Made by a program: the position numbers and the translations under genes. From a virus (Duplodnaviria; Caudoviricetes): 64,000 nt of DNA. Below the pieces are notes generated by a model, which saw only the letters and a list, made by a program, of their open reading frames with translations, had not been told where the DNA came from and ran no database searches. Where the stretch lies: IMG/VR virus record IMGVR_UViG_3300043410_001300, positions 2-64,001 of that record; one strand, 5' to 3'. Below, one piece after another: positions 8,458 through 59,885 of this stretch (within the stretch, counting starts at the first letter, position 1; each line of letters begins with the position of its first letter).

Positions 8458-8459
8458 CT

Positions 8460-43601: not shown

Positions 43602-44496
43602 AGTCTTAGAAGTCTTAGATATTGATCAGTTAGACCTGATCTATCTATCCTACGATGAGCCACAGAAGGAAGACTTCTGGTTAGCAATCCAAAACATGGT
43701 ACCATGGGCCAAGCGGGTAGATGGTGTTCGAGGTAGTGACGCTGCTCATAAAGCGGCTGCCGCAGCTAGTGATACTGAGAGATTTATTCTAGTAGATGGT
43801 GATAATATGCTAGATGAAACATTCTTAGACCAATCATTAACTATTACCCACGAGAATAAAGATGCTCAATTCCGTTGGCGAGCCAGAAATTACATCAACG
43901 GATTGTATTATGGCAATGGTGGATTATCTAGTTGGACCAAGACCTTTGTCAATAACATGCGTACTCATGAAGCTAGCGATGGTAACCATAAAACCAACAT
44001 CGAGTTTTGTTTTGACCCACTGTACTGGCCTATGCACAATTGCTACTCTACTACCTACCCTAACTACACGCCCAAGCAAGCATGGCGAGCAGGGTTCCGT
44101 GAAGGAGTTAAGATGTGTAATCGTGATGGCCTAATGCCCACCAACCTACAATCGTTCACTCACCACGTATGGCCTAATAACCTACGCAATCTACACATAT
44201 GGCAAACAGTAGGCCGCGATGTAGAGAATGGCTTCTGGGCAATTCTTGGCGCTCGCTTAGGCACACACTATCTAATGTTACGAGACTGGGATTATACCTC
44301 AGTCCAAGACTTCGATGAACTAGATAGGCTATGGGCACTGCATCAACACGATGACGAACTAGTAGCCCGACAAGTAGCTGCCGACCTTAACCGAGCACTT
44401 AATCTCAATATTGTGGAGCTAGACAGTATAGGCAGCAGGTTCTACAAAGACTATGGAACAAAGTGGACAAACACTGATATTATGGACAGAGAATGA
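43585..44496 (+). CDS. Glycosyltransferase-like protein (DGD / WRxxFRE family, copy 1)
   Basis: DLIYLSYDEP...RVDGVRG...AH...FILVDGDN...AWRAGFREGVK; GT-A-like DxD; start set at MKSQDE. Confidence 0.55.
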   Translation: MKSQDEVLEVLDIDQLDLIYLSYDEPQKEDFWLAIQNMVPWAKRVDGVRGSDAAHKAAAAASDTERFILVDGDNMLDETFLDQSLTITHENKDAQFRWRARNYINGLYYGNGGLSSWTKTFVNNMRTHEASDGNHKTNIEFCFDPLYWPMHNCYSTTYPNYTPKQAWRAGFREGVKMCNRDGLMPTNLQSFTHHVWPNNLRNLHIWQTVGRDVENGFWAILGARLGTHYLMLRDWDYTSVQDFDELDRLWALHQHDDELVARQVAADLNRALNLNIVELDSIGSRFYKDYGTKWTNTDIMDRE

Positions 44497-45857
44497 AATC
44501 ATTAGATCAAGTCGCCCAACAAGTTAACCAGGTTAGCCCATCATTCTGCGCTGCTAAATGGAAGCAAGTAACTATTCATCTCCAGAATGGTCATACTCAT
44601 TCGTGCCATCACCCTGATACCCACTTAGTGCCACTCTCTGAGATTAAGATGAACCCAGGAGCTCTGCATAATACTCAGCACAAAAAAGAACTCCGTAAGC
44701 AGATGTTAGAGGGTGTTCGTCCATCTGAATGTGATTACTGCTGGCGCGTAGAAGACAGTGGCACTAATCAGCACTCCGACCGTATTCGTAAGAGTGCTAC
44801 TCAATGGGCACTACCATATATCCAAGATATCGTCTCCAAGCCATGGGACGATAATGTAGACCCATCGTATGTAGAAGTATCCTTCTCAAGTGTATGTAAC
44901 TTTAAATGCAGCTACTGTGCTCCACACATCTCATCTAAGTGGATGGAGGAGATTGAGCAATATGGTGAGTATCCAACGTCATCTAAGTTCAATGGGCTCC
45001 AATGGATTAAAGAAGTTGGCAAGATGCCTCGACCTAATCGTGAAGATAATCCGTATGTAGAGGCATTCTGGAAGTGGTGGCCAACAATGTATACCAGTTT
45101 ACAACAGTTCAGAATTACTGGTGGTGAGCCACTCTTAGCTAAAGATACATTTAAGGTACTAGACTATATTATCGCTAATCCTAACCCTAATCTAGAAGTC
45201 AGTATCAATAGTAATCTATGCGTTCCGCCTGAACTATTTGATCGCTTTGTGGATAAATTAAAGAATATTACTGAGAATAGATTACTTAAAAAGATACAGG
45301 TCTTCACGTCCTGTGAAGCATGGGGTTCAGGAGCAGAATACATCAGACATGGCATGGATTACCAACAATGGTTAGCTAATGTCAATCGTCTATTCCTTGA
45401 GGTGCCCAACATCTATGTAACTGTTATGAGTACTTACAATCTGCTCAGTCTACCTAGTTACACCAGATTCCTAGAAGATATCTTAGCTATCAAGCAAGCT
45501 AACAATAGAACCCATCGTAGTGGTAATATGTGGTTAGATATCCCATACTTACGATACCCTACCCATCAAGCAGTGTTTATTGCGGATCCGACAATGTTAC
45601 ATTACATAGAAGAGAGTATCCAATTCATGGAGAATAACTCTAATCATCATGGCGAACGAGGCTTCCACCCTGCCGAGATAGATGGCCTAAAGCGCACCAG
45701 AGATGTACTCCTACAATGTAGGGAGGATGAGTACACCACTGTTAATCGACGTGACTTTATCATCTTTGTGGATGAGCATGACCGCCGCCGCGGTACTAGC
45801 TTCTTAGCTACATTCCCCGAGTTCGAGCATACATACCGGCTATGGTCCCAGCTATAA
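44493..45857 (+). CDS. Radical SAM protein with N-terminal Twitch/SPASM-like Cys cluster
   Basis: CNFKCSYC motif, TGGEPLL, N-terminal C..SCHH...CDYCW. Confidence 0.85.
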   Translation: MKSLDQVAQQVNQVSPSFCAAKWKQVTIHLQNGHTHSCHHPDTHLVPLSEIKMNPGALHNTQHKKELRKQMLEGVRPSECDYCWRVEDSGTNQHSDRIRKSATQWALPYIQDIVSKPWDDNVDPSYVEVSFSSVCNFKCSYCAPHISSKWMEEIEQYGEYPTSSKFNGLQWIKEVGKMPRPNREDNPYVEAFWKWWPTMYTSLQQFRITGGEPLLAKDTFKVLDYIIANPNPNLEVSINSNLCVPPELFDRFVDKLKNITENRLLKKIQVFTSCEAWGSGAEYIRHGMDYQQWLANVNRLFLEVPNIYVTVMSTYNLLSLPSYTRFLEDILAIKQANNRTHRSGNMWLDIPYLRYPTHQAVFIADPTMLHYIEESIQFMENNSNHHGERGFHPAEIDGLKRTRDVLLQCREDEYTTVNRRDFIIFVDEHDRRRGTSFLATFPEFEHTYRLWSQL

Positions 45858-45945: not shown

Positions 45946-46419
45946 ATGAAACTAATATCCCATCGTGGCAACTTAACAGGCCCCCAACCACATCTAGAAA
46001 ATACCCAAGAACAAATTCTCTACGCTATCTCACAAGGATTCGATGTAGAGATAGACGTATGGTATATCGATGGTAGCTTATTCTTAGGCCATGATGGCCC
46101 CGAACACCCTATCGCACCAGAATTCCTCGAACGAGATGAACTATGGTGTCATGCTAAAAATTTAGGAGCACTCCAATACCTCTTAAATAATAACATACAT
46201 TGTTTCTGGCATGAAGGTGACCAGCGTACACTTACTAGCCGTGGCTATATATGGACCTATCCTGGTAAAGACACTGTGGCTGAAAGTGTCATAGTAGAAT
46301 TAACTTCTACACTACCAACTATCACAGAACAAATAACAGGAGTATGTGGAGATTATGTCGCAAACTGGCGAAAAGAAGATAGCGTTATGCTTCTCGGGGC
46401 AACCAAGAACATGGCGTAA
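45946..46419 (+). CDS. GDPD/PI-PLC-like phosphodiesterase
   Basis: ISHRGN...EN...GFDVEIDVW...LGHD. Confidence 0.75.
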   Translation: MKLISHRGNLTGPQPHLENTQEQILYAISQGFDVEIDVWYIDGSLFLGHDGPEHPIAPEFLERDELWCHAKNLGALQYLLNNNIHCFWHEGDQRTLTSRGYIWTYPGKDTVAESVIVELTSTLPTITEQITGVCGDYVANWRKEDSVMLLGATKNMA

Positions 46420-47110
46420 GTGTGCTCAATCATGGCGTGATAACTTACTTCGTGCTAATACAGATGTATTCTGTCACCTATGGACGGCTAATACTCTACC
46501 CAACGCTATTGCTGGTGGTCAACCTAATATTGAGCCTATACTCCAGTGGGAGATAGATGAGTTATTTGACCTCCTGCGTCCAGTGGATTATATCATTGAA
46601 GAGCCACGTGAATTCACCCCAATGAACCCTGGTCAAGCCTTAACTAATAGTAACTACTTATCCCAGTTCTATGGCGTCCATCGTGCCGCTACCCTTAAAA
46701 AGGAGTGGGAGATTAAGCATGAGTTCAGATACGGTGGTGCTGTTAGAATGCGCTATGATACCTTCCTTGGCGCGGAGACGCATTCTAAGTTTAAAGTAGA
46801 CTACGACAGTATGATGAATGGTATACATATGGGCTGGGATCACGAGACGAAACAGGCCAGAATAGGCGACATTATGTGGCACAGTGATAGTCGTACATAC
46901 GATATCATAGCAGACTTCTGGTTAAACAGTGGTACTATTAGTGGTAGTAGATTTGGTGGTGATGTGCCGCCTGAGCGTATATTCTTCCACTACTTAAAGA
47001 AGAATGGTGTTAAGATTACGCCGCATCACTGGAAGGCGCAACTAATGAGATATGATAGTGAGCGTAGCTTTAGCAAAGTGGAGGATCCCCATGGATTTGA
47101 AACGTGGTAA
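46355..47110 (+). CDS. Putative glycan-transferase-like protein (IALCxSGxxR family, copy 1)
   Basis: KIALCFSGQPR...DVFCHLW...SQFYG...VRMRYD; this family is commonly seen in polysaccharide loci. Confidence 0.5.
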   Translation: MSQTGEKKIALCFSGQPRTWRKCAQSWRDNLLRANTDVFCHLWTANTLPNAIAGGQPNIEPILQWEIDELFDLLRPVDYIIEEPREFTPMNPGQALTNSNYLSQFYGVHRAATLKKEWEIKHEFRYGGAVRMRYDTFLGAETHSKFKVDYDSMMNGIHMGWDHETKQARIGDIMWHSDSRTYDIIADFWLNSGTISGSRFGGDVPPERIFFHYLKKNGVKITPHHWKAQLMRYDSERSFSKVEDPHGFETW

Positions 47111-47837
47111 GGTAGCTATTTGTTTAAGTGGATTAGTACGTACTGGCGTAAGAACTAAGGCACAGTTTGATAGAGTATTTGGTCATCTAGGAGCCGACTT
47201 ATTCTATCATACATGGACAACAGATCATACTCCTGAGGTTACTAACTTATATCAGCCAACTGATTACCTGGTCCAGGAGCCACTCCAAGGTGATCAAGGT
47301 TCATTTGGTAACATGTTATACAGCATCATGATGGCAAATCGTCTTAAGCGCCAGCACGAGGAGCGCCATAACTTTCGATATGACCTAGTGATTAAAGCTA
47401 GATTTGATCTAGTATATAACCCTGGTGCTAGATTTGTGGAGCGGATTGAGCCTAGAACAGTGTATTCTACGGGCGGCAACTGTGGTCTTAACCCTACCGA
47501 CTATGAGACACATGGGATTAGTGATGTCCTATTCTGGGGTGATTCCGAATCAATGGACATCGTATGTGATACTTATATGTACTACCGGCACTGGGCTCTA
47601 GAACTAGATCGATTACTGCGGGATGGTATGGTGTTTGATCACCATGATATCTATCTTAGCCCAGGCACACTAATGATGAATTTAGGTGCGCGGCATAATA
47701 TACACTTTGTAAAACATGCTAGTAGTATCAGAGAGATACCCTGGCGGTTGAATGCCACGCATCTAGACCCCGATACCCAATACCAACAAATTAAGGAGAT
47801 ATACAATAATGGCCACAAGACTAGTAGTAGCAGGTGA
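47091..47837 (+). CDS. Putative glycan-transferase-like protein (IALCxSGxxR family, copy 2)
   Basis: KVAICLSGLVR...DLFYHTW...MLYSI...YDLVIKARFD; GGAGG RBS. Confidence 0.5.
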   Translation: MDLKRGKVAICLSGLVRTGVRTKAQFDRVFGHLGADLFYHTWTTDHTPEVTNLYQPTDYLVQEPLQGDQGSFGNMLYSIMMANRLKRQHEERHNFRYDLVIKARFDLVYNPGARFVERIEPRTVYSTGGNCGLNPTDYETHGISDVLFWGDSESMDIVCDTYMYYRHWALELDRLLRDGMVFDHHDIYLSPGTLMMNLGARHNIHFVKHASSIREIPWRLNATHLDPDTQYQQIKEIYNNGHKTSSSR

Positions 47838-48615
47838 TTCCTGGACATACGGTAGTGAGATCAGAGACCCTAAGCTCACCGAAGACGTTAAAGACTGGGA
47901 TCAACCCAATGATGCCTACAGGCTACCTAGAATTTGGCCTACCAAACTAGGCGCTCTCATGGGTTCTGATACCGAAGTAATTAATCTGAGCTACCCTGCG
48001 GCATCTAATGACCGCATAGTCAGACACTTAACAGGATGGCTAACACAGGAGTACTTATATCCCGGTCGAGATACTAGTGACTTATTCGTAGTAGTAGGTC
48101 TAACTTCACCTGAACGTAAGGACTTCTACTACAAAGACGAGAGCTTACAGAACTGGATCACTATCTGGCCAATGTGGGATCATAGTTATGCACAACCACC
48201 ACTCCGTGAGTTTGGTAAACTATATGCTACCCATATGTGGAACGAGGAGGAGTATGTGCACCGTTATATTCAGCAGGTGTTCTACCTACAAACCCTATTT
48301 AAACAGTATGGTATCAAGCACCTGTTCTTTCAAGCGTTCTATCAGCATCAAACTATGCATATTAAAGACTGGCGAGATGACCCGTATAACAGACATTATA
48401 ATGGCCAACCCGATCGTCCACTATGGGATATGATTGACCCGGTTAGATTTATGAACAAAAATGACTCCAATCATAGCTTCCACCACTATATCACTAGCAG
48501 AGACACTAGCCCACATAAGCAAGTTAGTATAGTGGGCATGCATCCGTCAGAGACTGGCCATACCTGGTGGGCCGAACGTCTTCACCAATATTGTGGAGAT
48601 AATAATCTATGGTAA
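47809..48615 (+). CDS. SGNH/GDSL hydrolase-fold protein (copy 1)
   Basis: GDSWTYG, ASNDRI, C-terminal HPSETGH. Confidence 0.7.
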   Translation: MATRLVVAGDSWTYGSEIRDPKLTEDVKDWDQPNDAYRLPRIWPTKLGALMGSDTEVINLSYPAASNDRIVRHLTGWLTQEYLYPGRDTSDLFVVVGLTSPERKDFYYKDESLQNWITIWPMWDHSYAQPPLREFGKLYATHMWNEEEYVHRYIQQVFYLQTLFKQYGIKHLFFQAFYQHQTMHIKDWRDDPYNRHYNGQPDRPLWDMIDPVRFMNKNDSNHSFHHYITSRDTSPHKQVSIVGMHPSETGHTWWAERLHQYCGDNNLW

Positions 48616-49400
48616 GTCAACCAGTAACCCATCTAGCAGTATGCGGCGACAGCTTTGGCGTAGGCGCAGGTCTACCGTATGACAGATGCTATGAAGACAA
48701 CTTTACGGGCCGAGTAGCCGAACACTTCAATCTACCTCAGAAGGTATATGCCCGTAGTGGTTGCTGTAACTTTACTATCTTACTACAGGTGCGTAAGATT
48801 ATCGAGCAGGTCAAACAAGATCCCACATATCGCCCATTGGTTGTAATTACTACTACATTTCACGAGCGCCTGATATTTCCAGTCGATGGTAGTACTGACT
48901 ATCGAATGCCAGACTTATCACAAGTAGAGTACATGAACTACCCACCATACAGTGATATTAGTCCTAGCGAATCTAGGCCACTCGAATTCAGTATCGAGCA
49001 TGAACCCACACTACTCACTGAGACTGTTAGTAACATAGATCAGTATCTTCGTGGTAATATCAAGTGGGCAGATGGCTTATTCCATCGCGTAACACCCAAT
49101 AAGTTCGAGGCTATTAAGTCCTACATTACTGAACTATTCGATACCGGCGTCAAGCAACAGTGGGATAACTCCCTGTTCATTACTATGCACTACCTATTAG
49201 CTAAGCATGATATACCCCACGTTATCATGGGACACTACTTACATGATCTCCAAGGCCAACCAGAATACATGCAACATGATTGGGGCCACTGGTGTAAACA
49301 TTACCCAGACAACATGGGCAGTGGACACTGTAATGAGGAAGGTAATAGACTAGTGGGAGAGGCACTCGTCAAACACATCGAGGACAACAGTATATTATGA
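48609..49400 (+). CDS. SGNH/GDSL hydrolase-fold protein (copy 2)
   Basis: GDSFGVG, SGCCN, C-terminal GHCNEEGN. Confidence 0.65.
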   Translation: MVSQPVTHLAVCGDSFGVGAGLPYDRCYEDNFTGRVAEHFNLPQKVYARSGCCNFTILLQVRKIIEQVKQDPTYRPLVVITTTFHERLIFPVDGSTDYRMPDLSQVEYMNYPPYSDISPSESRPLEFSIEHEPTLLTETVSNIDQYLRGNIKWADGLFHRVTPNKFEAIKSYITELFDTGVKQQWDNSLFITMHYLLAKHDIPHVIMGHYLHDLQGQPEYMQHDWGHWCKHYPDNMGSGHCNEEGNRLVGEALVKHIEDNSIL

Positions 49401-50092
49401 GGGTATTATACGCTAACGGAGATAGTTGGACCTTCGGCCAAGAGATACCGTCCACGCACCCTACCTCCCAATGTCACACCGATCAATACTACGGAAGCTG
49501 GCCGTTCAAATTAGCCTCCCTACTGGGCGCGGCGTGTGTCAATGAGGGCGCTGGCGCTGGCAGTAATGATAGAATATTCAGGAAGACTACTGAGTATATC
49601 AATGAATGGGTGGCAACCTGCCGCAACCCCCAGGACCTCACCATTGTAGTAGGCTGGACCACACCTGAACGAGCAGAACTAGAGGCCAATGGCGTATATA
49701 CTAGAATAAACATTAATAATATCATTACTAAGTATGGCGAGGATGCCGACTACGAGCGCCAGCAATTAGAAGAGTATAGAGACAGTTACTACCGGGTCTT
49801 AGACCTCGAGATGGCAGCGGTCAGACAGATTAGATATATGATGACACTTCGTACACTAACCGCCGCCCTAGGTATTCGTTACTGGGACTTTCAAGCAATC
49901 GGTGCCCACCCACACCAGCTCCAAGCACTAGCTAACCGACACTATGGTCATACAATGGACAATTACTATGGGACTACATGGCACAATTACTGTCAACTCC
50001 ACGGCCAACCACTACACACTCATGGCCATCCCACCACCGAAGCCCACCATCATTGGGCGTCCTTACTCCACGACTGGATCAGCCATGAATAA
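49397..50092 (+). CDS. SGNH/GDSL hydrolase-fold protein (copy 3)
   Basis: GDSWTFG, GSNDRI, HPTTEAH. Confidence 0.7.
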   Translation: MRVLYANGDSWTFGQEIPSTHPTSQCHTDQYYGSWPFKLASLLGAACVNEGAGAGSNDRIFRKTTEYINEWVATCRNPQDLTIVVGWTTPERAELEANGVYTRININNIITKYGEDADYERQQLEEYRDSYYRVLDLEMAAVRQIRYMMTLRTLTAALGIRYWDFQAIGAHPHQLQALANRHYGHTMDNYYGTTWHNYCQLHGQPLHTHGHPTTEAHHHWASLLHDWISHE

Positions 50093-50855
50093 AACCGTCA
50101 ATATCATCATGGCTCTGGGTGGTGAGGGATCCAGATTTGCCTCCCAGGGCTACGAACTACCTAAGTATCTACTAGCATATGGCGGCTCTACTATGTTATA
50201 TCATTCCTTAGCATCCCTACGCATATCAGGTAATGTATACTTTATCGCTAGACAGGAGCACTTAGACCGTTACCCACAACTCCAACCACTGTTAGATGCC
50301 CTAGGTACCACCATCGTTGCACCACATCTGACCAGAGGAGCAGCAGAAACCCTACTCCTAGCCGAACCACATATACAGGACCTATCCTTACCCATGATTA
50401 GTATCAATTGTGACCAGATGATCAAGTGGAATCCGCAACCATTCTTAGATAAACTGGCCACTAATCCACACACCTCGTACATTGTTACCTATAGGGACAC
50501 TTCACCTAAGTGTTCGTATGTCCTATGTGAAACTCCTGCATGCAATAGTTTAGATAGTACCAAGGTCATTGAGGTGCGTGAGAAACAAGTAATCTCCACG
50601 CATGCCACCGTTGGAATCTATCATTGGAGTAGTACTCAACTGTTCTTTAGGTGTGCCCAGGAGTATATTAGCACCACACCGCTCCAACAATGCGATGGTG
50701 GAGAGTATTATGTAGCACCGGTTTACAATGTGGCCATTGGCCAGGGGCAATCTGTAGAGCGATATAGCATAGAAGACAACGGTGGACAATTCTGGCCAGT
50801 AGGCACACCCCAAGATTTGAACAGTTATATACTAGAGACAGGAGATTTTATATGA
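50085..50855 (+). CDS. Sugar-phosphate nucleotidyltransferase-like protein
   Basis: ALGGEGSRF...PK, TRGAAET, INCD, EK..IS..ATVGIY, GEYYVAPVYN, GTPQDL; start set at MNKTV. Confidence 0.8.
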   Translation: MNKTVNIIMALGGEGSRFASQGYELPKYLLAYGGSTMLYHSLASLRISGNVYFIARQEHLDRYPQLQPLLDALGTTIVAPHLTRGAAETLLLAEPHIQDLSLPMISINCDQMIKWNPQPFLDKLATNPHTSYIVTYRDTSPKCSYVLCETPACNSLDSTKVIEVREKQVISTHATVGIYHWSSTQLFFRCAQEYISTTPLQQCDGGEYYVAPVYNVAIGQGQSVERYSIEDNGGQFWPVGTPQDLNSYILETGDFI

Positions 50856-51184
50856 AACACCACCGCTTAGAAGATTTCTACCGTGGTTGGATAGTGGGTA
50901 AGTTCGAGCCATCATTGCTCCAAGCTGATTTCGAAGTAGGCATTGCCCATCACCACGCCGGCGAACCACACGGAGACCACTTTCATAAACTGTCCACCGA
51001 GATTAACGTGGTGATTAGTGGTACCGTCAAGATTAACGATAGGGTGTTTAACAGTGGCGACATATTCGTCCTAGAGCCCTGGGAAGTGTCACAAGCCGAG
51101 TTTATCACTGATTGCGTGATTGTGATAGTGCGTGATCGGAGTATTCCAGGTGATAAATTCGAATTCAGCATTCGTGGCGAATAA
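50852..51184 (+). CDS. Cupin-fold protein (possible sugar epimerase/isomerase)
   Basis: RGWIVGKFEP, HFHK..TEIN...SG...GDIF. Confidence 0.7.
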   Translation: MKHHRLEDFYRGWIVGKFEPSLLQADFEVGIAHHHAGEPHGDHFHKLSTEINVVISGTVKINDRVFNSGDIFVLEPWEVSQAEFITDCVIVIVRDRSIPGDKFEFSIRGE

Positions 51185-51294
51185 TTGGGCCTTTGTAGGC
51201 CTATCGTGGTATATCAGTGCCTGGTGAGCCTCTGGAGACATTATTTTTCTCCCTACTCCCTTCAAGTGCGTTAGAAATACTTTTTGCTCCCACC

Positions 51295-51329
51295 ACCGTT
51301 AATTCGCTAATATTCGGCTATTTAACGGT
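51295..51329. repeat. Inverted repeat in the 234-bp intergenic gap
   Basis: ACCGTTAA (51295-51302) and TTAACGGT (51322-51329), flanked by a C-rich left arm and G-rich right arm. Confidence 0.6.
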
Positions 51330-51418
51330 ATTTTATCCTGAATAAATATGGAGTGGTTCGTCTGCGGTTGAGGTGGTGAATAATATCTTCTAGGTGGCAC
51401 CACATAGTAAATAACCAC

Positions 51419-52543
51419 ATGAATATTTACCTACCTACCGTACCAGCCGGTCATATTGCTGTTAAATTTGGGATTACTTCCTCTACTACCTTAGATGAGG
51501 CTGCTCGTGGCATTGCTATTGGGCAGTCTATTGGTAATCCTGGTGCTCGTGTGGAGCGTTGGGAGACTAGTCATCTAATTGATACCCATTGTGCTAAGAT
51601 TATTGGCAGTCGAGAGGACTTATTATCTAGACACGAGGGTGATGTTGTTATTGCTTTCCCCCTTATTAATATTAACTGGAGGGAGGATGGCCTATCTCAG
51701 TTATTATGTACTATAATGGGTGGTCAGTGTGATATTGATATTATAGAACGGTGCTGGGTAGTAGATATTGATCTCGATTTAGTACCTAGATTAACTCCAC
51801 GCTATGGTTTGAGTGGCTTGCGTGAGTTAACTGGTCGTTATGATCGTCCATTATTGGGTTGTATTATTAAGCCTAAGATTGGTTTATCGGCCGGTGATTA
51901 TGGTACCATTGTGGAGGAAATGGTTAGAGGTGGTGCTGATATTATTAAAGAGGATGAAATACTAGCTAATCCGGTATTTTGTAGTATGGAGGAGCGCTTA
52001 TCTATTGTTAGAGAGATTATTGGTACTAGAAAGATTGTTTACTTGGCTACTATTAATGCGGATGCAGATAGATTATTAGACAAGGCTAGAATGGTAGCTA
52101 GGAGTGGAATTCGTGGAGTACATTTAAATGTATGGAGCGGATTAGGTAGTTATGGGGCTGTTCGTAGATTAGGTCTAGATATTGCGCTGCATTATCAAAA
52201 GTCTGGTGATCGGGCGTGGAGTGATAGGAATAATAAGTATAGAATTACCTGGTGGGTACTATGTAAATTAGCTGCCTGGAGCGGCGTAGATACTATTCAT
52301 GCTGGTATGTGGGGTGGTTACTTATCAGATGACCCTGTGGAATTGGCGGAGATTATGCGGATGTTGACCGGTTATAATGTAGTGCCGGCATTGTCGTGTG
52401 GTATGAATGCCGAATTAATTCCCAAGGTGACAGATAGATTTGGTGTAGATTATATGGCCAATGTAGGAGCTGCTTGTCATTCGCATCCTCTTGGCGTGGA
52501 GGCAGGAGTTAGAGAATTACGCAGGGCTATCGATGGTAGTTAA
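51419..52543 (+). CDS. RuBisCO-like protein (form IV RLP)
   Basis: PRYGLSGLR...RPLLGCIIKPKIGLS, GGADIIKEDE, DTIHAG, PALSCGM, HSHPLGVEAG. Confidence 0.88.
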   Translation: MNIYLPTVPAGHIAVKFGITSSTTLDEAARGIAIGQSIGNPGARVERWETSHLIDTHCAKIIGSREDLLSRHEGDVVIAFPLININWREDGLSQLLCTIMGGQCDIDIIERCWVVDIDLDLVPRLTPRYGLSGLRELTGRYDRPLLGCIIKPKIGLSAGDYGTIVEEMVRGGADIIKEDEILANPVFCSMEERLSIVREIIGTRKIVYLATINADADRLLDKARMVARSGIRGVHLNVWSGLGSYGAVRRLGLDIALHYQKSGDRAWSDRNNKYRITWWVLCKLAAWSGVDTIHAGMWGGYLSDDPVELAEIMRMLTGYNVVPALSCGMNAELIPKVTDRFGVDYMANVGAACHSHPLGVEAGVRELRRAIDGS

Positions 52544-53261
52544 ATTATGCGGACATAGTGGCGCTGAAGTAGAATTAATAGATGGTAGGGTCCATAAAAG
52601 CGGTCGCGGAGTTATTCGTAATTACGCCAGAATGACTTCCCTAGGTAATTTAATACCACAACCCCGCATTATTGATTATAGCGACAGCCTTGTCCTAGAA
52701 TATATCGCGGGCGATAATATTGCTGATTGGCTAGGTAATAATCAACCACATCAATTAATTAAATTTATTCAGAGTAATATTGATATTCTGGGTGAAGTAA
52801 TTATCGATCCATATAAGGATTATTTGCCGGTGTATGAGGCTAGATTGAATTCTGCCTTATATTTACCTACCACTATTGGAAATATTATTGATGATCTACC
52901 TAGATATCTACCACAAACCCAATATCATGGTGATTTTACATTTGATAATATTATTGCTGGTAGTAGTGGATTTGTCTTAATCGACGCAGTAGACACTGAC
53001 CTAGATAATATCTGGTTTGATTTAGCTAAATTGCGACAGGATGTAGATTGTGGATGGTTTGTGCGTAATCGTGGTGGAGTCACTGATGATCTTGCCATTA
53101 AATTAAGATTGATTAGCGGTGAATTATCTAGGAAATATCGACATTATTCTAATAGGAGCATGGCAATATTAGCGCTAGGCAGAGTATGGAACTATTCTAC
53201 ACCCGAGGAGCAAGAGTGGATAAGTACTAAGATGGATATGTTATGGAGGACACCATGTTGA
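52533..53261 (+). CDS. APH/choline-kinase-like phosphotransferase
   Basis: GHSGAEV, HGDFTFDNI, LIDA, DLAKLRQD; start set at MVVKL. Confidence 0.75.
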   Translation: MVVKLCGHSGAEVELIDGRVHKSGRGVIRNYARMTSLGNLIPQPRIIDYSDSLVLEYIAGDNIADWLGNNQPHQLIKFIQSNIDILGEVIIDPYKDYLPVYEARLNSALYLPTTIGNIIDDLPRYLPQTQYHGDFTFDNIIAGSSGFVLIDAVDTDLDNIWFDLAKLRQDVDCGWFVRNRGGVTDDLAIKLRLISGELSRKYRHYSNRSMAILALGRVWNYSTPEEQEWISTKMDMLWRTPC

Positions 53262-53362: not shown

Positions 53363-54826
53363 ATGAATTATGTAGGAATTAGCTGTGGCTATCATGACGC
53401 GGCACTAACTGTTATAGGCAGTACTGGTAATATATTATTCGCTGGACACGCAGAGCGATACGGTGATAATAAACATACGCCTAATTTAAATATGGGTATT
53501 ATTGATGATGCCCGTAAGTATATTACTGATGAGATAGAAGTACATTATTACGAGCGTCCGCTGGTTAAATATATGCGTAGATTATGGGCAGGTGAGCGTC
53601 CAGTATTATCTAGTATGAGTGCTAAAAATATTATAGGTGATATATTAATAGCAGAATTAGGCGTTGACCGAGGGTGTAAAATACATACTCATAATCATCA
53701 TCTCGCTCATGCGGCGGCGGGGTTTCAGACCTCGCCATATGATAACGCCACTGTTGTTGTTATTGATGCTATCGGTGAGTTTGAGACTATTACTATATGG
53801 AAGGCCAAATATGTCGAAGGTAAAGCAAAATATAAAAAACTTTATACACAAAATTACCCAAATTCCATCGGACTCTTTTATACTGGAATTACTCAGCGCG
53901 TTGGCCTACGTCCATTAGATGAAGAGTATATTTTAATGGGCATGGCAGCGTATGGCAAACCAATATATGTAGAGGAGATGAGAGCTAAATTGGATGAGAA
54001 TTTACATATTGGTGTAGGTGATGATTTCTTACCAGATGCCGATCATTATGATTTAGCCGCTAGTGCTCAGGTATTAGTGGAAGAGTTAATCATGGATATT
54101 ATTCGTAAGGCCAAGCAATTAGGCACTAGTAGTAATCTGGTATATGGCGGCGGCGTAGCTCTTAATTGTTTAGCAAATAGACGGTTAGGTGAATATTACA
54201 AAAATGTATGGATACTACCTAACCCTGGTGATGCGGGTAGTAGTTTAGGTGCGGCCGCATTAGGCTATGGCGGTCCGATTAAATTCGATAATGCTTATCT
54301 TGGTCATAATATCCCAGGCGAATATCCAGTCAGTCGATTAATCGATGAGTTAATTACTAATAAGATTGTTGGTGTGGCTAGCGGCAGAGCAGAGTTTGGA
54401 CCACGAGCACTGGGTAATAGATCATTATTAGCTGACCCTAGAGGTCCTGAGATTAAAGAACTAGTGAATAATATTAAACGACGACAGCAATTCAGGCCAT
54501 TTGCGCCAGTTATTCTAGAAGAATTAGCTGATAGTTATTTTGATATGTCGGGCGATGGCGTTGATAGTAGATATATGCAGCGAGTGGTTCGTTGTATACA
54601 TCCCGAATTATTCCCTGCCATTATTCATAGAGACGGCACCAGCAGAGTACAAACAGTACCTAATGATGGTAGTGGAATAAGGCGATTACTTGAAGCATGG
54701 TACAAGGAGACAGGCTGTCCTATGTTATTAAATACATCGCTGAATATCAGGGGTGAGCCCATGGTTAATAATCGTCAGGACGCTGATAGATTTGAGGAGC
54801 TATATGACATAAAGGTGTGTAGTTAA
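53363..54826 (+). CDS. O-carbamoyltransferase (NodU/CmcH/TobZ family)
   Basis: HDAA, ERY, HHLAHAA, DAIGE, MGMAAYG, GGVALNC, GDAGSSLG, EFGPRALGNRS, FRPFAP, LNTSLN. Confidence 0.92.
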   Translation: MNYVGISCGYHDAALTVIGSTGNILFAGHAERYGDNKHTPNLNMGIIDDARKYITDEIEVHYYERPLVKYMRRLWAGERPVLSSMSAKNIIGDILIAELGVDRGCKIHTHNHHLAHAAAGFQTSPYDNATVVVIDAIGEFETITIWKAKYVEGKAKYKKLYTQNYPNSIGLFYTGITQRVGLRPLDEEYILMGMAAYGKPIYVEEMRAKLDENLHIGVGDDFLPDADHYDLAASAQVLVEELIMDIIRKAKQLGTSSNLVYGGGVALNCLANRRLGEYYKNVWILPNPGDAGSSLGAAALGYGGPIKFDNAYLGHNIPGEYPVSRLIDELITNKIVGVASGRAEFGPRALGNRSLLADPRGPEIKELVNNIKRRQQFRPFAPVILEELADSYFDMSGDGVDSRYMQRVVRCIHPELFPAIIHRDGTSRVQTVPNDGSGIRRLLEAWYKETGCPMLLNTSLNIRGEPMVNNRQDADRFEELYDIKVCS

Positions 54827-55380
54827 ACACCACACACTACGAGGTGAATACGCTCCTGTTCGCCTCCATTGTATACCCAGTGATACTTCGTAGTATCGAC
54901 TTCGTACCAGTTACCATCCATCGGGATATGATAGTTTAGGCCATATACGGGCACATCACTGGATCCCGCATACTCCTGACTAACTTCACCAAATAATGCT
55001 TTGTTATTTGTTTTTAACACTAGATGATATCTAACTTCATGATCTCTGTGGATACTAAGACCGTGATGCGGCATCAATCTCATAATTCTTATTCTGCCAA
55101 ACTCAACGCCGAGATGTTCCTTGAGTTGTTCTAATTGTCCTCTGATATAAGATTGTATATCAATATTCCATATCGTGAAGTCTGTTTCCTTGCCACCATA
55201 AGCTGGGCTATTAGCATTCGACAGTCCACCAACAGCATCATACCATCTATTAGTAGCACCATTACGGCAGTTTAACCCTATTTGATTTTTATCTCCCCAA
55301 GGGGCAATATGAAGTAACTCATCGAGCTCCTCATTACAGCGAGCCACATCACTACTCATAGTTAACCGTTTAATGAACAT
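54823..55380 (-). CDS. Fe(II)/2-oxoglutarate dioxygenase (Asp/Asn beta-hydroxylase-like)
   Basis: HRD...YHLV...H.VYNGGEQERIHLV; start placed at the ATG coupled to the upstream TAA. Confidence 0.75.
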   Translation of the reverse strand: MFIKRLTMSSDVARCNEELDELLHIAPWGDKNQIGLNCRNGATNRWYDAVGGLSNANSPAYGGKETDFTIWNIDIQSYIRGQLEQLKEHLGVEFGRIRIMRLMPHHGLSIHRDHEVRYHLVLKTNNKALFGEVSQEYAGSSDVPVYGLNYHIPMDGNWYEVDTTKYHWVYNGGEQERIHLVVCGV

Positions 55381-56021
55381 TACTTTCTCCAAATTGCCAT
55401 ATAACGAGTGTATACATTAGTCTCCAATTCGCCACTATAATATTCACCTTCAACTCTATTCTGACGTTTAAAGTCTGCTAAGTCAACACTACATCGAATG
55501 TGCTCATCGCAACTGAAATAATTATTGCCCTGCGCTACGATTAGAGTGCCTCTTGGAATACCATCATACCAACTGTCATATACTTCCTGAGTCACATGCT
55601 CAGTCGATGTATTGATTACTACATCGGGACGAATATCGCTTTGATACTCGTATGATCCCATATCAGCAGTCACTGCCTTGAAGCGCCAGTCATCCATTTC
55701 GAAGTTCTTATTCACTTGATCTGCGATTGCTTCGCACCATGGGTCTAGGTCGATTGAACGGCACTTGTTTACGTTGATATTGCTTTGAATTATCATACTT
55801 CCCAGGATACCAATCCAACCACCAAAAATGTAGATATTAGTAGGAGCGCCCGCCATTATGCATTTGCTCAATTCATTGACTAACCACCCTTTACTTGCTA
55901 ATTGTCCATACCATAACGCATCTAATGCCCGTGTCCGTTGCTCGTGATTGTCTATATTACGAATAGCGTTCATCCATTGCGCTAATTCGAGGTTGCTAAT
56001 TTTAAACTCTGCTTTATTCAT
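55380..56021 (-). CDS. Class I SAM-dependent methyltransferase
   Basis: IFGGWIG motif I, SIDLDP, ADM, VINTSTEH; start set at MNKAEF, 5 nt after TAAATA. Confidence 0.75.
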   Translation of the reverse strand: MNKAEFKISNLELAQWMNAIRNIDNHEQRTRALDALWYGQLASKGWLVNELSKCIMAGAPTNIYIFGGWIGILGSMIIQSNINVNKCRSIDLDPWCEAIADQVNKNFEMDDWRFKAVTADMGSYEYQSDIRPDVVINTSTEHVTQEVYDSWYDGIPRGTLIVAQGNNYFSCDEHIRCSVDLADFKRQNRVEGEYYSGELETNVYTRYMAIWRK

Positions 56022-56026
56022 GGGCG

Positions 56027-56045
56027 TATTTATGAGGTGTAAATA
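56027..56045. promoter_or_regulatory. Back-to-back divergent late promoters
   Basis: TATTTA at 56027-56032 (TAAATA on minus) and TAAATA at 56040-56045, each 5 nt from an ATG (56021 and 56051). Confidence 0.7.
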
Positions 56046-56050
56046 TGGGT

Positions 56051-57142
56051 ATGATAGAAGATGATGAAGAAGAAGATTACTGGGAAGTGCCAGATAACAT
56101 AGATACAACTGACTTTGATTTTACATGGCGACCTGATGTATACGAAGAAGAATACATTCATCAGTTCGGCACACAGTGGCAAAAAACTGGTGGTCCACGA
56201 TTAGTAGTAGCTGGCGCTACGAAGATTAAGTATCAGGACTTTCAACGAGCACGAGCGCTACCCGATATGTCTAAGTGGAAGTTGCCTAGAATGACTGGTA
56301 TTGATCGTATTGATTTTGATTACAGTTGGCATCCAGATGATACAGATGAGATGTTCAATTATGTGTTTGGCGACCAACAGGGAACTGCCGAAGAGAGTAA
56401 GATCATTCAGTACACTAGGCAACATGGAGCAGAGATTAAGTTTGTTGATAAGCCAGTAGCAAATGTGGTATACACGCCACTAGATATTATCTTTCTAAGC
56501 AACGGTGAGACTGACGAACAACTACGATATGATAGATTGTGTAAGGTAGCCAGCAGGCCAGTAAAGTGGATAAAAGGCATCAATGGTAGAGAAAATGCTC
56601 TAAGAGAGGCAGCAAGGCAATCATCAACTAAGTGGTTCTTTCTATTTCCTGGTAAATTATGGGCTGATGAGAACTTCGACTTTGACTTTCAACCAATACG
56701 ATATCACGATATCAAACACTATATCTTCTATGCTAAGAACCCACTCAATGGTTTAGAGTACGGACATCAAGCAGCGGTGTGCTATAATCAGCGATTAGTG
56801 CTAGAGACACTGGATTATGGACTAGACTTTACTATGAGTAAAGCACATGACATTATACCAGTACTCAGTGGTATTGCCCAATACAATAGCGACATTACTA
56901 TGACTTGGCGAACTGCATTTAGAGAAGTGATCAAACTCAAAGCAGAAGATAGCGACGAGAGTAGAAAGCGACTACAAATATGGCTGACTGAGGCACGAGG
57001 TCAGCATTGTGAATGGAGTATTATCGGCGCACAGGATGGTATTGCTTACTACAATTCTGTCAACGGTGAACATAGTGAATTAATGAAGTCTTTCTCATGG
57101 CAGTGGTTAGACGAATACTTTACAAGCCGATACTCTGTCTAA
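56051..57142 (+). CDS. Glycosyltransferase-like protein (WRxxFRE family, copy 2) with N-terminal repeated FDxxWxPD domains
   Basis: FDFTWRPD and FDYSWHPD repeats, then DIIFLSNGE...GING...TWRTAFREVIKL. Confidence 0.55.
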   Translation: MIEDDEEEDYWEVPDNIDTTDFDFTWRPDVYEEEYIHQFGTQWQKTGGPRLVVAGATKIKYQDFQRARALPDMSKWKLPRMTGIDRIDFDYSWHPDDTDEMFNYVFGDQQGTAEESKIIQYTRQHGAEIKFVDKPVANVVYTPLDIIFLSNGETDEQLRYDRLCKVASRPVKWIKGINGRENALREAARQSSTKWFFLFPGKLWADENFDFDFQPIRYHDIKHYIFYAKNPLNGLEYGHQAAVCYNQRLVLETLDYGLDFTMSKAHDIIPVLSGIAQYNSDITMTWRTAFREVIKLKAEDSDESRKRLQIWLTEARGQHCEWSIIGAQDGIAYYNSVNGEHSELMKSFSWQWLDEYFTSRYSV

Positions 57143-57698
57143 TTGGGCGGAATGCTTGTAATGCTCTATTGTACTCATTGATGTTTAAATTCCAGATAGT
57201 TTGTGGAGTGTAGTAATACTCTTCCTCTCGCACAAACTCAACAATACCTTGCTTCGATAATAACTCCAGGGCTCGGTGAGTTCGAGACATCTTACCACTA
57301 GCATCATGACTACCGTGTGACGTGGTGATGTATAACTCATCATAACCATTCGCAACACCCCATCCAATTTGCATAGGCAACAGAATACTAAACGGCACAC
57401 TGTTCATATGTGTCTTACTCATACCAGGAATCAATCTCTGATATCTAGGTAATGTGGCACTACGAAACAAACATCGTAGTATTCTGTGTTCGTCGTCATA
57501 GCTATGACATCCACTGATACTAGCAATCTCATCATTGACTATTAGCGCCCAGTACTGAGGGTCACTAGGTAGGTCATGACCATCAATTAGCTTCAATGCT
57601 TCCATAGTGCCATTATTAGTGTATCCCACACCAGCACACTCTCTATTGAAAGCATCGAGTAGTTTATTGTGATTTTGGGATATTTTTACAATATTCAT
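57120..57698 (-). CDS. Hypothetical protein, possibly GNAT-like acyltransferase
   Basis: 192 aa; EIASISGC...RCLFRSATLP...GYDELYIT loosely resembles a GNAT fold; near an adenylation enzyme. Confidence 0.35.
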   Translation of the reverse strand: MNIVKISQNHNKLLDAFNRECAGVGYTNNGTMEALKLIDGHDLPSDPQYWALIVNDEIASISGCHSYDDEHRILRCLFRSATLPRYQRLIPGMSKTHMNSVPFSILLPMQIGWGVANGYDELYITTSHGSHDASGKMSRTHRALELLSKQGIVEFVREEEYYYTPQTIWNLNINEYNRALQAFRPIRQSIGL

Positions 57699-58983
57699 AA
57701 AAATCCTTTAGTTCAGGGAACGTCTCTACTAGATTTAATCCTCTTAGTGAATCAAAGTTACTGAACCAATCATAGAATTCTCTTTGTAAATTAATGTCTG
57801 GAATATTGTCTTCTAGCTGTCTACGTATGCTTTTTAAGAACTTTATGTATACAGGATGTTGCACTGGGCTATTCTCTAACACGATAATAGCATCGTTTAC
57901 GTATCTACTGAATTCTGAAGGTAATACGAACACACTATGACAAGCAGGACTCTTAATCATATGAGGATTCATCGAGACTTTTACTGAATATCTTTCTTCG
58001 AGTTCGACTATCCAGTTGGAGAACTTACTTAGTTTTGGAATACTTAGTACATTAATAGTTGGATTAAATGATAATGTCATATTATCATTGATAGATGCTA
58101 TCTTAAATAACTCCTCTACATTATTATTGAATCTATCCCAATCTAATCCATTTCTTATGTATTCTGCTTGTATATCAGTAGATTCCATACTTATAGTAAT
58201 ACAAAACTTAAATCTATCAGTTAGCCTAGGCAATAATTCAATTAATTTATTGAAGTATTTTTCCCTTGCGTTTAAGTTAGTAACGACTGCCACACCGAGT
58301 TTACTATCACATTCTCTTACTTCTGATAATTTTTCTAACATGTCATAAAACTCTGGTATAATCAATGGCTCACCACCAGAAATTCTGATATCAGTGAGAC
58401 TTCTCCCTTCATCCGAACTGATCCACTCCCACAACAGAGATGTGAACTCGTTGGTTGGTAAAGCAGTTACTTCTCGATATTCTTCTATTGATATGGTTTT
58501 ATTTTTTAACGCCTCACTGGCCCATTGAGTGCTGTATCTAGGAGAGCAATACATACATTTTAAATCACACGTAGCATCTAATGTCACTTCTAGTACCACT
58601 GATGATTTGCTTACTAGTAAATCGCTATTAATGTCAATATCTTCGCTCCAGTTATCGAGTAGGTATTTTTTAGTTTTAGCATATCTATCATTTATTTTTG
58701 AGTGAGATTGGCGAGGACTCTCAATATTTTTATCTTCTAAATCCCAACAGAATTTACAATCACTATGGCGAATGCCTTTGAGCATCTCCAATCGTCTTTC
58801 TTTATAATAATCATTATTTGTTAAACAGCTGGACCCATATTTTTCTATATCTTCCGGTGTAAATTTGTAAAAAGAAGTGAGACAACACATCTTTCCTTCT
58901 CCTCTACTCATATTGATATATGGGAAATCCCATCTTTGGGGACAAATAGCGTTTTCTACCTCAATCGGTATTACTTTTTTCAT
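57664..58983 (-). CDS. Radical SAM protein (paralog of 44493-45857)
   Basis: CDLKCMYC, SGGEPLI, N-terminal C..MCC...CKFCW, AEYIRNGLDW; start set at MKKVIP. Confidence 0.85.
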   Translation of the reverse strand: MKKVIPIEVENAICPQRWDFPYINMSRGEGKMCCLTSFYKFTPEDIEKYGSSCLTNNDYYKERRLEMLKGIRHSDCKFCWDLEDKNIESPRQSHSKINDRYAKTKKYLLDNWSEDIDINSDLLVSKSSVVLEVTLDATCDLKCMYCSPRYSTQWASEALKNKTISIEEYREVTALPTNEFTSLLWEWISSDEGRSLTDIRISGGEPLIIPEFYDMLEKLSEVRECDSKLGVAVVTNLNAREKYFNKLIELLPRLTDRFKFCITISMESTDIQAEYIRNGLDWDRFNNNVEELFKIASINDNMTLSFNPTINVLSIPKLSKFSNWIVELEERYSVKVSMNPHMIKSPACHSVFVLPSEFSRYVNDAIIVLENSPVQHPVYIKFLKSIRRQLEDNIPDINLQREFYDWFSNFDSLRGLNLVETFPELKDFYEYCKNIPKSQ

Positions 58984-59885
58984 TAGTATGCTTTCGGGAT
59001 AATTTGACAACCAGCGCTGACGCGACCTCTGTATATATACCACTCATTTCTCATGTACACACAATCGCCAGTTAGTAGAGAACCATCTTGTACACAGTCA
59101 CCTAGTAATGCCAATTGTGAGCCAATCAAAGCAGTACGACACCATGCTTTAGTGCCAAGTGGTACACCATACTTAAAGATAGACAAGTCATCGCCTAGTT
59201 TGAAGCGATGATTAATGATAATCGGCCCTGCCTCAGTAAGTCCGTAGTTGAGAATGAAATCACAGTCAAGATGGGTAAAATATCTAACATCGTCGGCACT
59301 AATACAATCACTGCCACACATTACGGTTTTTAGAGTAGGAGCACCCTTACGCTCAACCTTCCTTAACACCTCAATCATACGAGGCACCACGTGAGTTATA
59401 GTGGCGCCAATCTCATTGATACGATTGAAGAATGTAAACGCATTAAATGGTTCAACGACCACATGGGCACCTGCTAATAAGGCAGGTAGTGACTGAGCAT
59501 TGATGCCACCAGTATGACGCATGGAGCATACAGTATACACTACATCTTTCGCAGTGATGCCATTACATTCGATAGCATTGTCAGCATTTGATAGCAACAT
59601 GACTTCTGTCAGAACAATTGGTTTACGAGTGCCGCTGCTGCCACTTGACCACAGTACTAGAGAGAATTCATCTACAGAATTGTCAAACGGTACGATATCA
59701 TTCACATTTAACGGCGGAACGACCACGGTAGTCTTCATGCGACTAGCTCGTAATATATCAATTAACACACTATCGCCGCCACTATCCGATTCCACAAGCG
59801 CCAGCAACTCTCCATACGACAGATTGTTGAGTGCGGAACGATGAGCATATTTTTCAGCCACATCTTTGAACCTATTAAATAACAT
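58983..59885 (-). CDS. Compact AMP-binding (acyl-CoA synthetase/ANL) enzyme lacking the C-terminal subdomain
   Basis: SSGSSGTRK P-loop, YGLTEAGP, TGD, GR, then ends after ~12 aa; TAAATA 5 nt before the ATG. Confidence 0.75.
   Translation of the reverse strand: MLFNRFKDVAEKYAHRSALNNLSYGELLALVESDSGGDSVLIDILRASRMKTTVVVPPLNVNDIVPFDNSVDEFSLVLWSSGSSGTRKPIVLTEVMLLSNADNAIECNGITAKDVVYTVCSMRHTGGINAQSLPALLAGAHVVVEPFNAFTFFNRINEIGATITHVVPRMIEVLRKVERKGAPTLKTVMCGSDCISADDVRYFTHLDCDFILNYGLTEAGPIIINHRFKLGDDLSIFKYGVPLGTKAWCRTALIGSQLALLGDCVQDGSLLTGDCVYMRNEWYIYRGRVSAGCQIIPKAY

Follow-up and report, generated by a model that had tools for sequence, protein, structure and literature searches.

A predicted non-carboxylating RuBisCO-like protein on a jumbo-phage contig is linked, and in relatives fused, to a sugar-phosphate nucleotidyltransferase

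The gene at 51419..52543 (+ strand, ATG start, 374 aa) of a 64,000-nucleotide stretch of viral DNA (positions 2 to 64,001 of the IMG/VR record IMGVR_UViG_3300043410_001300; the whole stretch is called the window below) encodes a RuBisCO-like protein (RLP). We find that this RLP belongs to a distinct clade in which active-site residues are replaced in a fixed pattern, and that in most loci examined the RLP gene lies close to a gene for a sugar-phosphate nucleotidyltransferase, with which it is fused in some relatives. Because of these fixed gene partners, the RLP is read here as a sugar-phosphate enzyme for surface-sugar building: in our judgement it is rather probable that it acts as a Mg2+-dependent enolising isomerase feeding a nucleoside diphosphate (NDP)-sugar pathway within a glycan island.

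The protein is a member of the RuBisCO superfamily. Residues 132-372 match the Pfam model PF00016 (RuBisCO_large) with E 1.6e-34 and 120 bits against a gathering cut-off of 30.1, and the match above the gathering score was seen again in the genome search. Homologues numbered 1604 at E<=0.001 among the 8000 scored, the best 120 being 47-100% identical. Active-site residues were placed through three alignments (a HMMER alignment to the form III enzyme 2cwx, a 19-sequence family alignment and a MAFFT alignment of 68 rows, for which the annotated form I enzyme of C. necator pHG1 was the anchor), with spinach numbering and anchor motifs. Every string quoted in a preliminary description of this DNA, made by eye from the letters, is present in the translation, which contains IIKPKIG, IIKEDEI, LHYQKSGD, IHAGMWGGYL and ALSCGM, and the three alignments bear out both the residues that it called kept and those that it called changed. 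Kept residues (spinach = window) are K175 = K151, K177 = K153, K201 = K177, D203 = D179, E204 = E180, H327 = H294, S379 = S326, G381 = G328 and G403 = G350, the last being an addition to the earlier set. The changes already noted were H294 to Q260, R295 to K261 and K334 to Y301; beyond these we find N123 to G102, H298 to D264, T173 to I149, T65 to N40, G380 to C327, G404 to A351 and G405 to A352, and the loop E60-W66 reads GQSIGNP in the window protein.

These features are shared by the family. K175, K177, K201, D203, E204, H327, S379, G381 and G403 are each present in 49/49 family rows, as are the replacements Y334, Q294, G123 and N65, while K295 occurs in 47/49 and D298 in 46/49 and the loop motif GQSxGNP is invariant across the family. 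Since the rewired residues are fixed in all or nearly all of the rows, they are a family signature and not the decay of one gene, and the pattern reads as that of a real active site of another kind. A related viral contig (L015) carries the RLP as two open reading frames (ORFs) at 8001-8840 and 8834-9112 (279 and 92 aa), through either breakage of the copy or an error in sequencing.

In RuBisCO, carboxylation and cleavage depend on N123, H294 and K334. Each of the 12 form I-III reference rows has N123 and H294, and K334 is lysine in the ten form I/III rows, the position being offset by one alignment column in the two form II rows. All 49 family rows have G, Q and Y at these three positions. 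Moreover, the RLP scores far below the cut-off of each NCBIfam model for RuBisCO or a characterised RLP: 145.5 against 438 for PRK04208 (form I/III subfamily), 144.6 against 497.45 for TIGR03326 (form III), 66.1 against 489 for PRK13475 (form II), 103.6 against 409 for NF007095 and 76.8 against 513.6 for TIGR03332 (both MtnW), and 92.5 against 700 for NF042437 (OiaX). From the replaced residues and the failed cut-offs the RLP is predicted to be non-carboxylating, which agrees with the earlier view that this is not a CO2-fixation gene.

The RLP family has no special tie to any solved protein, and its scores against solved structures overlap in one range. The family profile gives 163-144 bits with form III structures (8dht, 163), 147 with the uncharacterised RLP 3nwr, 145-130 with MtnW structures and 116 with the C. 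tepidum RLP 1ykw; the best single-sequence match of the RLP among solved structures is the form III enzyme 2cwx (E 5e-29). The placement was examined in the second of two trees, comprising 73 rows and 423 columns (IQ-TREE quick search, with Shimodaira-Hasegawa-like approximate likelihood-ratio test, SH-aLRT, as the only support measure), from which family members shorter than 340 aa, 26 of the 49 cell-labelled loci and identical duplicates had been omitted; the reference labels for forms I-III came from NCBIfam cut-offs or record annotation. A branch with SH-aLRT 100 sets all 49 family rows apart from the 24 references: five form I, two form II and five form III rows, one MtnW (L110, which passes NF007095 at 431 bits), one MtnW-like row, nine OiaX-type/acid-sugar RLPs and a Thiodictyon RLP. 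Thus, the comparison called for in the preliminary description resolves the RLP as a clade separate from RuBisCO forms I-III, MtnW and the acid-sugar RLPs, and puts it outside the methionine-salvage clade, the MtnW models having failed and MtnW, represented by one reference, lying across the fully supported branch. A search of 401 Pseudomonadota genomes for MtnW gave no match above the TIGR03332 cut-off and one match that passes NF007095, which was taken as the MtnW reference. The clade comprises 41 clusters at 50% identity with E<=1e-30 in a library of 1.84 billion proteins, and it is distinct and widespread, with members in phages, SAR11, genome bins of the Candidate Phyla Radiation (CPR) and DPANN, Legionellaceae and others.

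The preliminary description had considered a phage an unusual location for such a gene; this location had already been reported, as Jaffe et al. (2019, Mol Biol Evol 36:435, PMC6389311) describe a non-redundant set of about 80 form IV-like RLPs from phage contigs. According to the parts of that paper compared here, among the contigs are some from IMG/VR, some of Myoviridae and a curated phage genome about 200 kb long, and the RLPs group with Beckwithbacteria outside other RLPs, have divergent key residues and were left open as to function (PMC6389311). The window resembles that clade in being an IMG/VR phage contig of a partly myoviral, very large phage group with divergent residues and Beckwithbacteria kin. 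As a Beckwithbacteria locus (L040, 45% identity) falls inside our 100%-supported clade, we file the window gene in the phage/Beckwithbacteria form IV-like clade of those authors, an assignment by grouping and description and not by the published sequences. The text compared holds no mention of linkage or fusion to a nucleotidyltransferase or a cupin, the gene maps of supplementary figure S1 lying outside the comparison (PMC6389311). No later work on the function of phage form IV-like RLPs was found in the literature searched.

The phage setting itself is well founded. The source is an IMG/VR virus record of 64,001 bases with a CheckV completeness of 18%, and the genes of the window include an SbcCD-like nuclease pair and those for a late sigma factor, a baseplate hub and a baseplate wedge protein of 1213 aa. 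Over its whole length the wedge protein is about 31% identical to its best matches, which are in Rak2/CBB-type jumbo myoviruses of 345-378 kb; the contig is therefore part of the genome of a jumbo myovirus that is distant and uncultured, which agrees with the completeness estimate. Neither the RLP protein nor the 15 kb of surrounding DNA matched anything in the cultured-phage collection.

The function of the RLP is suggested most directly by its genomic partners. Loci were gathered from related viral contigs (29, from IMG/VR) and species-representative genomes (49), the latter including a complete Pelagibacter chromosome, SAR11 single-cell genomes, three Legionella species, Tatlockia, Turneriella, a Verrucomicrobiae chromosome, Azospirillum oleiclasticum and many CPR and DPANN bins. 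All ORFs of the loci were searched with profiles of the neighbour proteins of the window. From 76 loci with 70 distinct RLP sequences, 57 with at least 1.5 kb on both flanks were retained and 13 were dropped. The partners that recur around the RLP are encoded in the window as follows.

50085..50855, + strand: sugar-phosphate nucleotidyltransferase (Pfam NTP_transferase, E 2e-7; profile against PDB 4evw, E 4e-39)
50852..51184, + strand: small 110-aa cupin whose HxH...E metal motif is invariant (phrog_24762, E 1.5e-30)
45946..46419, + strand: glycerophosphodiester phosphodiesterase (GDPD)-like miniature, 157 aa, with invariant HR, EN, ExD and GHD (profile against 7e0v, E 8e-4)

The nucleotidyltransferase ORF as listed by the program begins at 49944, and a start near 50085 suits its relatives of about 240 aa. 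This gene lies within 1.5 kb of the RLP gene in 52 of the 57 loci and within 8 kb in 56, and the two genes share a strand in 58 of 61 pairs. The other partners are less constant at these two distances: the 108-aa cupin is found in 31 and 32 loci, the 145-aa GDPD-like protein in 29 and 41, and a DUF7796-like family in 15 and 29. Within 8 kb, the cupin accompanies the RLP in 22/22 viral and 10/35 cell-labelled loci; its family profile matches PDB cupins with E 4e-5 to 1e-3. The adjacent downstream kinase, by contrast, had been proposed as the partner in the preliminary description, a suggestion that we abandon in favour of the upstream nucleotidyltransferase: the kinase-like ORF has a sub-threshold APH score, no PDB relative and no BLAST match (E 1e-5) in the 29 viral loci.

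The association extends to gene fusion. Among 16 longer homologues (659-813 aa), 15 carry both PF00483 and PF00016. Family profiles delimit the RLP at about residues 10-419 and the nucleotidyltransferase at about 429-660 in P0122, P0128 and P0140, and P0121 (813 aa) is a triple fusion of RLP (1-391), nucleotidyltransferase (398-639) and cupin (711-810). Such RLP-nucleotidyltransferase(-cupin) fusions are strong evidence for one short shared pathway. In the literature searched we found no described link of an RLP to nucleotidyltransferases or nucleotide sugars, the supplementary gene maps of Jaffe et al. lying outside the search. The partnership with nucleotidyltransferase and cupin, the fusions, and the RpiB and HAD-like stand-ins described below thus appear undescribed in that literature.

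Two other long proteins, P0173 and P0183 (726 and 742 aa), were considered as fusions of the RLP clade and rejected. They join a domain of the IF-2B family, that of ribose-1,5-bisphosphate (R15P) isomerase, to a full form III-like RuBisCO of another family with its N-domain, and they are a Rosetta-stone fusion for the nucleotide-salvage RuBisCO pathway, unrelated to the phage RLP clade. In four loci of cultured Legionellaceae (L074-L077: Legionella maceachernii, L. nautarum, L. drozanskii and Tatlockia), which lack the cupin and the GDPD-like gene, the RLP-nucleotidyltransferase pair is the smallest version of the cassette seen; it faces a gene of the LicD phospho-alcohol transferase family, which was found in these four loci only.

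Phages without an RLP indicate what may occupy its place. The RLP itself is in no PHROG family and had no tblastn match in 50,697 phage records, among which the nucleotidyltransferase family is found in 22 (19 of them Synechococcus phages), the cupin in 3 and the GDPD-like protein in 17. In Synechococcus phage Bellamy, gp206 (L108, 5489-6646) is a nucleotidyltransferase fused to an RpiB/LacAB domain (PF02502, 3.9e-32); it is followed by a homologous cupin and a DUF7796 protein and, a few genes further, by a class II aldolase-family protein, a small HAD-like protein and a GDPD-like protein. The DUF7796 paralogues adjoin the nucleotidyltransferase in cyanophage S-CAM9 as well as in Bellamy. The S-CAM9 nucleotidyltransferase forms the C-terminal part (residues 221-458) of a 461-aa protein which matches, end to end over residues 1-457, an N-terminally extended protein of 456 aa from the Pelagibacter locus L038; the N-terminal portion of this L038 protein matches separate HAD phosphatases of S-CAM9 and Azospirillum and is, as far as BLAST tells, HAD-like. 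Given the RpiB and HAD-like fusions in RLP-less phages, we read the RLP as filling the same sugar-phosphate slot: the place beside the nucleotidyltransferase would be held by a converter of free sugar phosphates in related cassettes and by a RuBisCO-fold protein in the RLP clade. The Bellamy cassette is the closest likeness, with an isomerase fused to the activating nucleotidyltransferase and with homologous nucleotidyltransferase, cupin, DUF7796-like and GDPD-like genes. The bacterial type II phosphomannose isomerase/GDP-mannose pyrophosphorylase, a nucleotidyltransferase joined to a cupin, follows the same logic of isomerase plus activation. The cassette of the window differs from such pairs in that a RuBisCO-fold protein takes the isomerase slot, an arrangement that we did not find described in the literature searched.

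Some annotations around these homologues deserve comment. Bellamy gp206 is annotated 'phosphatase', and gp212, annotated 'phosphoheptose isomerase', has 102 aa and only a weak HAD-like match. Plasmid homologues of the nucleotidyltransferase are mostly annotated 'glycosyltransferase family 2 protein', which looks like a misnomer given their NTP_transferase-family profile matches. On Azospirillum lipoferum p6 (L107) a tandem double nucleotidyltransferase lies beside a HAD phosphatase and a WavE-family gene, with an SIS-domain gene a few genes away.

The superfamily membership, conserved residue pattern, separate clade, linkage and fusions are observations; from them we infer a chemistry, an order of steps, a substrate class and a glycan target as follows. 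The kept K175, K177, K201, D203, E204 and H327 would bind Mg2+ through a carbamylated lysine and pull a proton from an alpha-hydroxy-ketone phosphate, with S379, G381 and G403 serving as a cradle for the proximal (P1) phosphate. N123G, H294Q and K334Y replace the residues for adding CO2 or water and for cleaving the carbon chain, and R295K and H298D remodel the site of the second (distal) phosphate. Hence the RLP would enolise a ketose monophosphate or a similar compound and re-protonate it elsewhere, as an isomerase or epimerase. Its product (less likely its substrate) would be activated by the upstream nucleotidyltransferase, the small metal cupin would add one more isomerisation or epimerisation to this short pathway, and the outcome would be an NDP-activated unusual sugar or sugar phosphate, which the DUF7796-like, SGNH-like, carbamoyltransferase, radical-SAM and 2-oxoglutarate (2OG)-oxygenase-like proteins of the island would use and decorate. 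The preliminary description had inferred a biosynthetic sugar-phosphate enzyme; the gene context (nucleotidyltransferase, cupin, carbamoyltransferase, SGNH-like and radical-SAM genes) lends this support. Going further, and rating it somewhat below an even chance, we suggest that RLP, nucleotidyltransferase and cupin form an unrecognised three-enzyme cassette for an NDP-activated rare sugar or sugar phosphate that builds or decorates the surface glycans of jumbo phages, SAR11, CPR/DPANN and Legionellaceae. The rare sugar would perhaps derive from a pentulose or another ketose phosphate, and the RLP would fill the slot held by RpiB, HAD or class II aldolase-family proteins in the related phage cassettes.

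Several points weigh against this interpretation. A nucleotidyltransferase is missing within 1.5 kb in five of the 57 loci, and in one of them even within 8 kb; the cupin is absent from 25 of the 35 cell-labelled loci, so that not every locus has the three-enzyme cassette. Metagenome bins and single-cell assemblies make up many of the 'cellular' loci, and these may be phage DNA that was binned wrongly. The references of the tree comprise a single MtnW, on a long branch, and neither R. rubrum-type (DeepYkr) nor Chlorobium-type (IV-Photo) RLPs. The intactness of the active site is a prediction from alignment, and G404, glycine in 46/49 rows, is alanine in the window protein only, which could weaken phosphate binding. 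Finally, the substrate cannot be named from sequence, and linkage gives no order of steps: the RLP might act on a nucleotide-linked sugar.

This last point leads to the first alternative, in which the nucleotidyltransferase makes an NDP-ketose that the RLP isomerises or epimerises, the P1 cradle gripping the beta-phosphate. We consider this order unlikely, though it has its attractions: the E60-W66 loop, which closes over the P1 site in RuBisCO, is rewritten yet invariant, as if for a new contact; small cupins commonly act on NDP-sugars (RmlC and FdtA types), and the cupin is the last domain in P0121. However, the RLP precedes the nucleotidyltransferase in all four fusions checked, and RLP-less phages fuse domains for free sugar phosphates to the nucleotidyltransferase (RpiB in Bellamy, HAD-like of the S-CAM9 type); neither fact is decisive.

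A second alternative would make the RLP a catabolic acid-sugar enzyme (OiaX/OiaT-like) that degrades a sugar acid together with the adjacent kinase. A kinase-like ORF does follow the RLP gene, the closest viral relatives have a fructosamine-kinase-like ORF there (E 2.9e-4), and the closest plasmid-borne homologues by BLAST (<=28.8% identity) all adjoin a four-carbon acid-sugar kinase and thus also have a phosphate-handling partner. Those plasmid RLPs, however, keep H294, R295 and K334 (6/6 rows), lose K177, are catabolic and form a separate clade with 96% support; the OiaX score is far short of its cut-off, no DUF1537 kinase was found among the scanned window ORFs, the kinase-like neighbours are weak and mutually unalike (E 0.63), and the setting is a phage glycan island and not a catabolic operon. 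This alternative is therefore very unlikely.

About as unlikely is methionine salvage, in which an MtnW-like enolase or an R. rubrum-like 5-methylthioribulose-1-phosphate (MTRu-1-P) isomerase would recycle radical-SAM by-products. In classical methionine salvage a cupin dioxygenase acts after the enolase, and here a cupin lies beside the RLP, radical-SAM genes are present at 44493-45857 and 57664-59043, the enolisation core is kept and the distal phosphate site is lost, as would suit a 1-monophosphate substrate. MtnW/YkrW (2,3-diketo-5-methylthiopentyl-1-phosphate enolase) likewise lacks the carboxylase residues, has the K201/D203/E204 metal site and enolises a 1-phosphate, as inferred for the window RLP. 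It differs in that the RLP is below both MtnW cut-offs, lies across the 100% split in a separate clade and has a nucleotidyltransferase as partner, and methionine salvage leaves that link and the fusions unexplained. No MtnA (IF-2B), MtnB (Aldolase_II) or other methionine-salvage neighbour was found among the 30 window ORFs scanned with Pfam, the window being about 18% of the genome. The Rhodospirillum rubrum RLP is a 5-methylthio-D-ribulose-1-phosphate isomerase, according to the part of the source consulted (PMC6302742), and by analogy it would be the best mechanistic model for the window RLP, since its proton moves shift the carbonyl along a ketose 1-phosphate. The likeness is one of mechanism and not of sequence, and the R. 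rubrum enzyme works in sulfur and isoprenoid salvage and not in the making of glycans.

There is likewise only a slight chance that the RLP merely binds a sugar phosphate, as a non-catalytic subunit with a regulatory or scaffolding part for the nucleotidyltransferase: a physical complex would suit the fusions and the tight linkage, but the metal/carbamate set and K175 are invariant in 49/49 rows across phages, Legionella and DPANN archaea, which would be difficult to account for in a protein with no catalytic role. A true carboxylase for ribulose-1,5-bisphosphate (RuBP), of divergent form III-like type, acting in nucleotide salvage, has next to no probability in spite of the best solved-structure matches being form III (2cwx; 8dht with the family profile), because K334Y, N123G and H294Q are each fixed in 49/49 rows, the form III model gives 144.6 against 497, the family profile scores MtnW structures nearly as high (145 bits), and no IF-2B family (R15P isomerase) match occurs in the scanned ORFs, AMP phosphorylase not having been searched by name.

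The isomerase reading is set within a larger island, the remaining features of which, with the promoter-like motif, are the following.

44493..45857, + strand: radical-SAM protein at the upstream island edge (Pfam Radical_SAM, 2e-7; relatives in 8 related viral loci)
46346-47110 and 47052-47837, + strand: two paralogous DUF7796-like proteins, candidate glycan-building proteins
47809-48615, 48609-49400 and 49397-50092, + strand: three SGNH-like proteins with GDS motifs in their translations
51342..51348, + strand: late-promoter-like ATAAATA (context AATAAATA), 71 nt upstream of the RLP ATG
52533..53261, + strand: possible kinase-fold protein (weak; APH 20.5 bits against a cut-off of 23.2)
53363..54826, + strand: NodU/CmcH-type O-carbamoyltransferase (Carbam_trans_C, 3.6e-48; Carbam_trans_N, 2e-30; phrog_1601, 2.2e-91)

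Two of the three SGNH-like proteins match Pfam DUF6071 (9e-14 and 3.5e-12), and the island also holds a 2OG-oxygenase-like protein. The O-carbamoyltransferase was found in only one of the 29 related viral loci. Neighbours in the relatives include glycosyltransferases of family GT2, NAD epimerase/dehydratases, DegT aminotransferases, UDP-glucose dehydrogenase-like genes, a PMM-like protein and a dehydroquinate-synthase-like protein. The DUF7796-like proteins were considered as LicD-like, and this was rejected (hhalign probability 0.5%). The GDPD-like protein has all the catalytic motifs of such enzymes although it is only about half as long as usual; its Atlas clusters are almost all viral, the Atlas model has a predicted local distance difference test (pLDDT) score of 0.90, and the protein may be a miniature or dimer-completed barrel.

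For the kinase-like ORF the program lists a TTG start at 52491; with its ATG at 52533 as start, it overlaps the RLP gene at the end of the latter. In the closest viral relatives (L002-L005, L015 and L026) the RLP is followed by the weakly fructosamine-kinase-like ORF of 321-324 aa, split in L005 into ORFs of 163 and 146 aa, and also by a 354-aa dehydroquinate-synthase-like ORF of the sugar-phosphate cyclase family. The window ORF and the 321-aa ORF of L002 were compared as possible counterparts, and they are not significantly alike.

The preliminary description had placed the RLP under a late promoter. The T4 late promoter consensus TATAAATA has no copy in the whole window; the ATAAATA motif before the RLP makes a late promoter plausible. 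This motif is under-represented, with 9 copies against 19.7 expected (at 4460, 11674, 12138, 15830, 34507, 37278, 39124, 51342 and 56027), and 9/9 copies have the sense orientation with a downstream start close by, in a window of which only 3.3% is non-coding. Seven copies precede listed ORF starts by 5-171 nt, among them the starts of baseplate and giant structural genes; one copy is 92 nt before the late-sigma gene, and one is inside the listed ORF 55380-56108, just ahead of an internal ATG. ATAAATA is therefore a candidate late-promoter core for this phage lineage. The copy at the RLP lies in a 234-nt non-coding gap between cupin and RLP (51185-51418), a place at which most related loci have under about 40 nt or an overlap. 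The gap opens with a 7-bp GC-rich hairpin directly after the cupin stop; its folding is not convincingly better than that of shuffles (z -1.9), and no credible ORF was found in it. Over 45.5-55.5 kb, sigma-70-like sites (32 against 29.1 expected by chance) and terminators (3 against 5.4) were not above chance, and Rfam and tRNA scans of the window gave nothing.

Elsewhere in the window, one ORF of 6212 aa (15865-34503, + strand) lies right behind the baseplate wedge gene, preceded by the ATAAATA at 15830, and presumably encodes a giant structural or fibre protein. Downstream of the island there are two QueC-like PP-loop proteins on the + strand (59927-60577 and 61248-61853; E 1.8e-8 and 1.3e-10) and, on the - strand, the second radical-SAM protein and an AMP-binding-enzyme fragment (57664-59043 and 58983-59885). 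These genes could belong to another modification pathway.

To our knowledge, every characterised RLP is a catabolic or salvage enzyme, and RLPs are the main source of ideas on the role of the RuBisCO fold before carbon fixation. If the proposal is true, a RuBisCO-fold enzyme would for the first time have an anabolic role, in glycan building, and a new sugar nucleotide would await discovery. In that case, metagenome surveys that count the clade as rbcL or as viral 'carbon fixation' would be mislabelling a glycan gene. The clade spans phages, abundant ocean bacteria and ultra-small cells, and its linkage and fusion to the nucleotidyltransferase make its function directly testable with three proteins.

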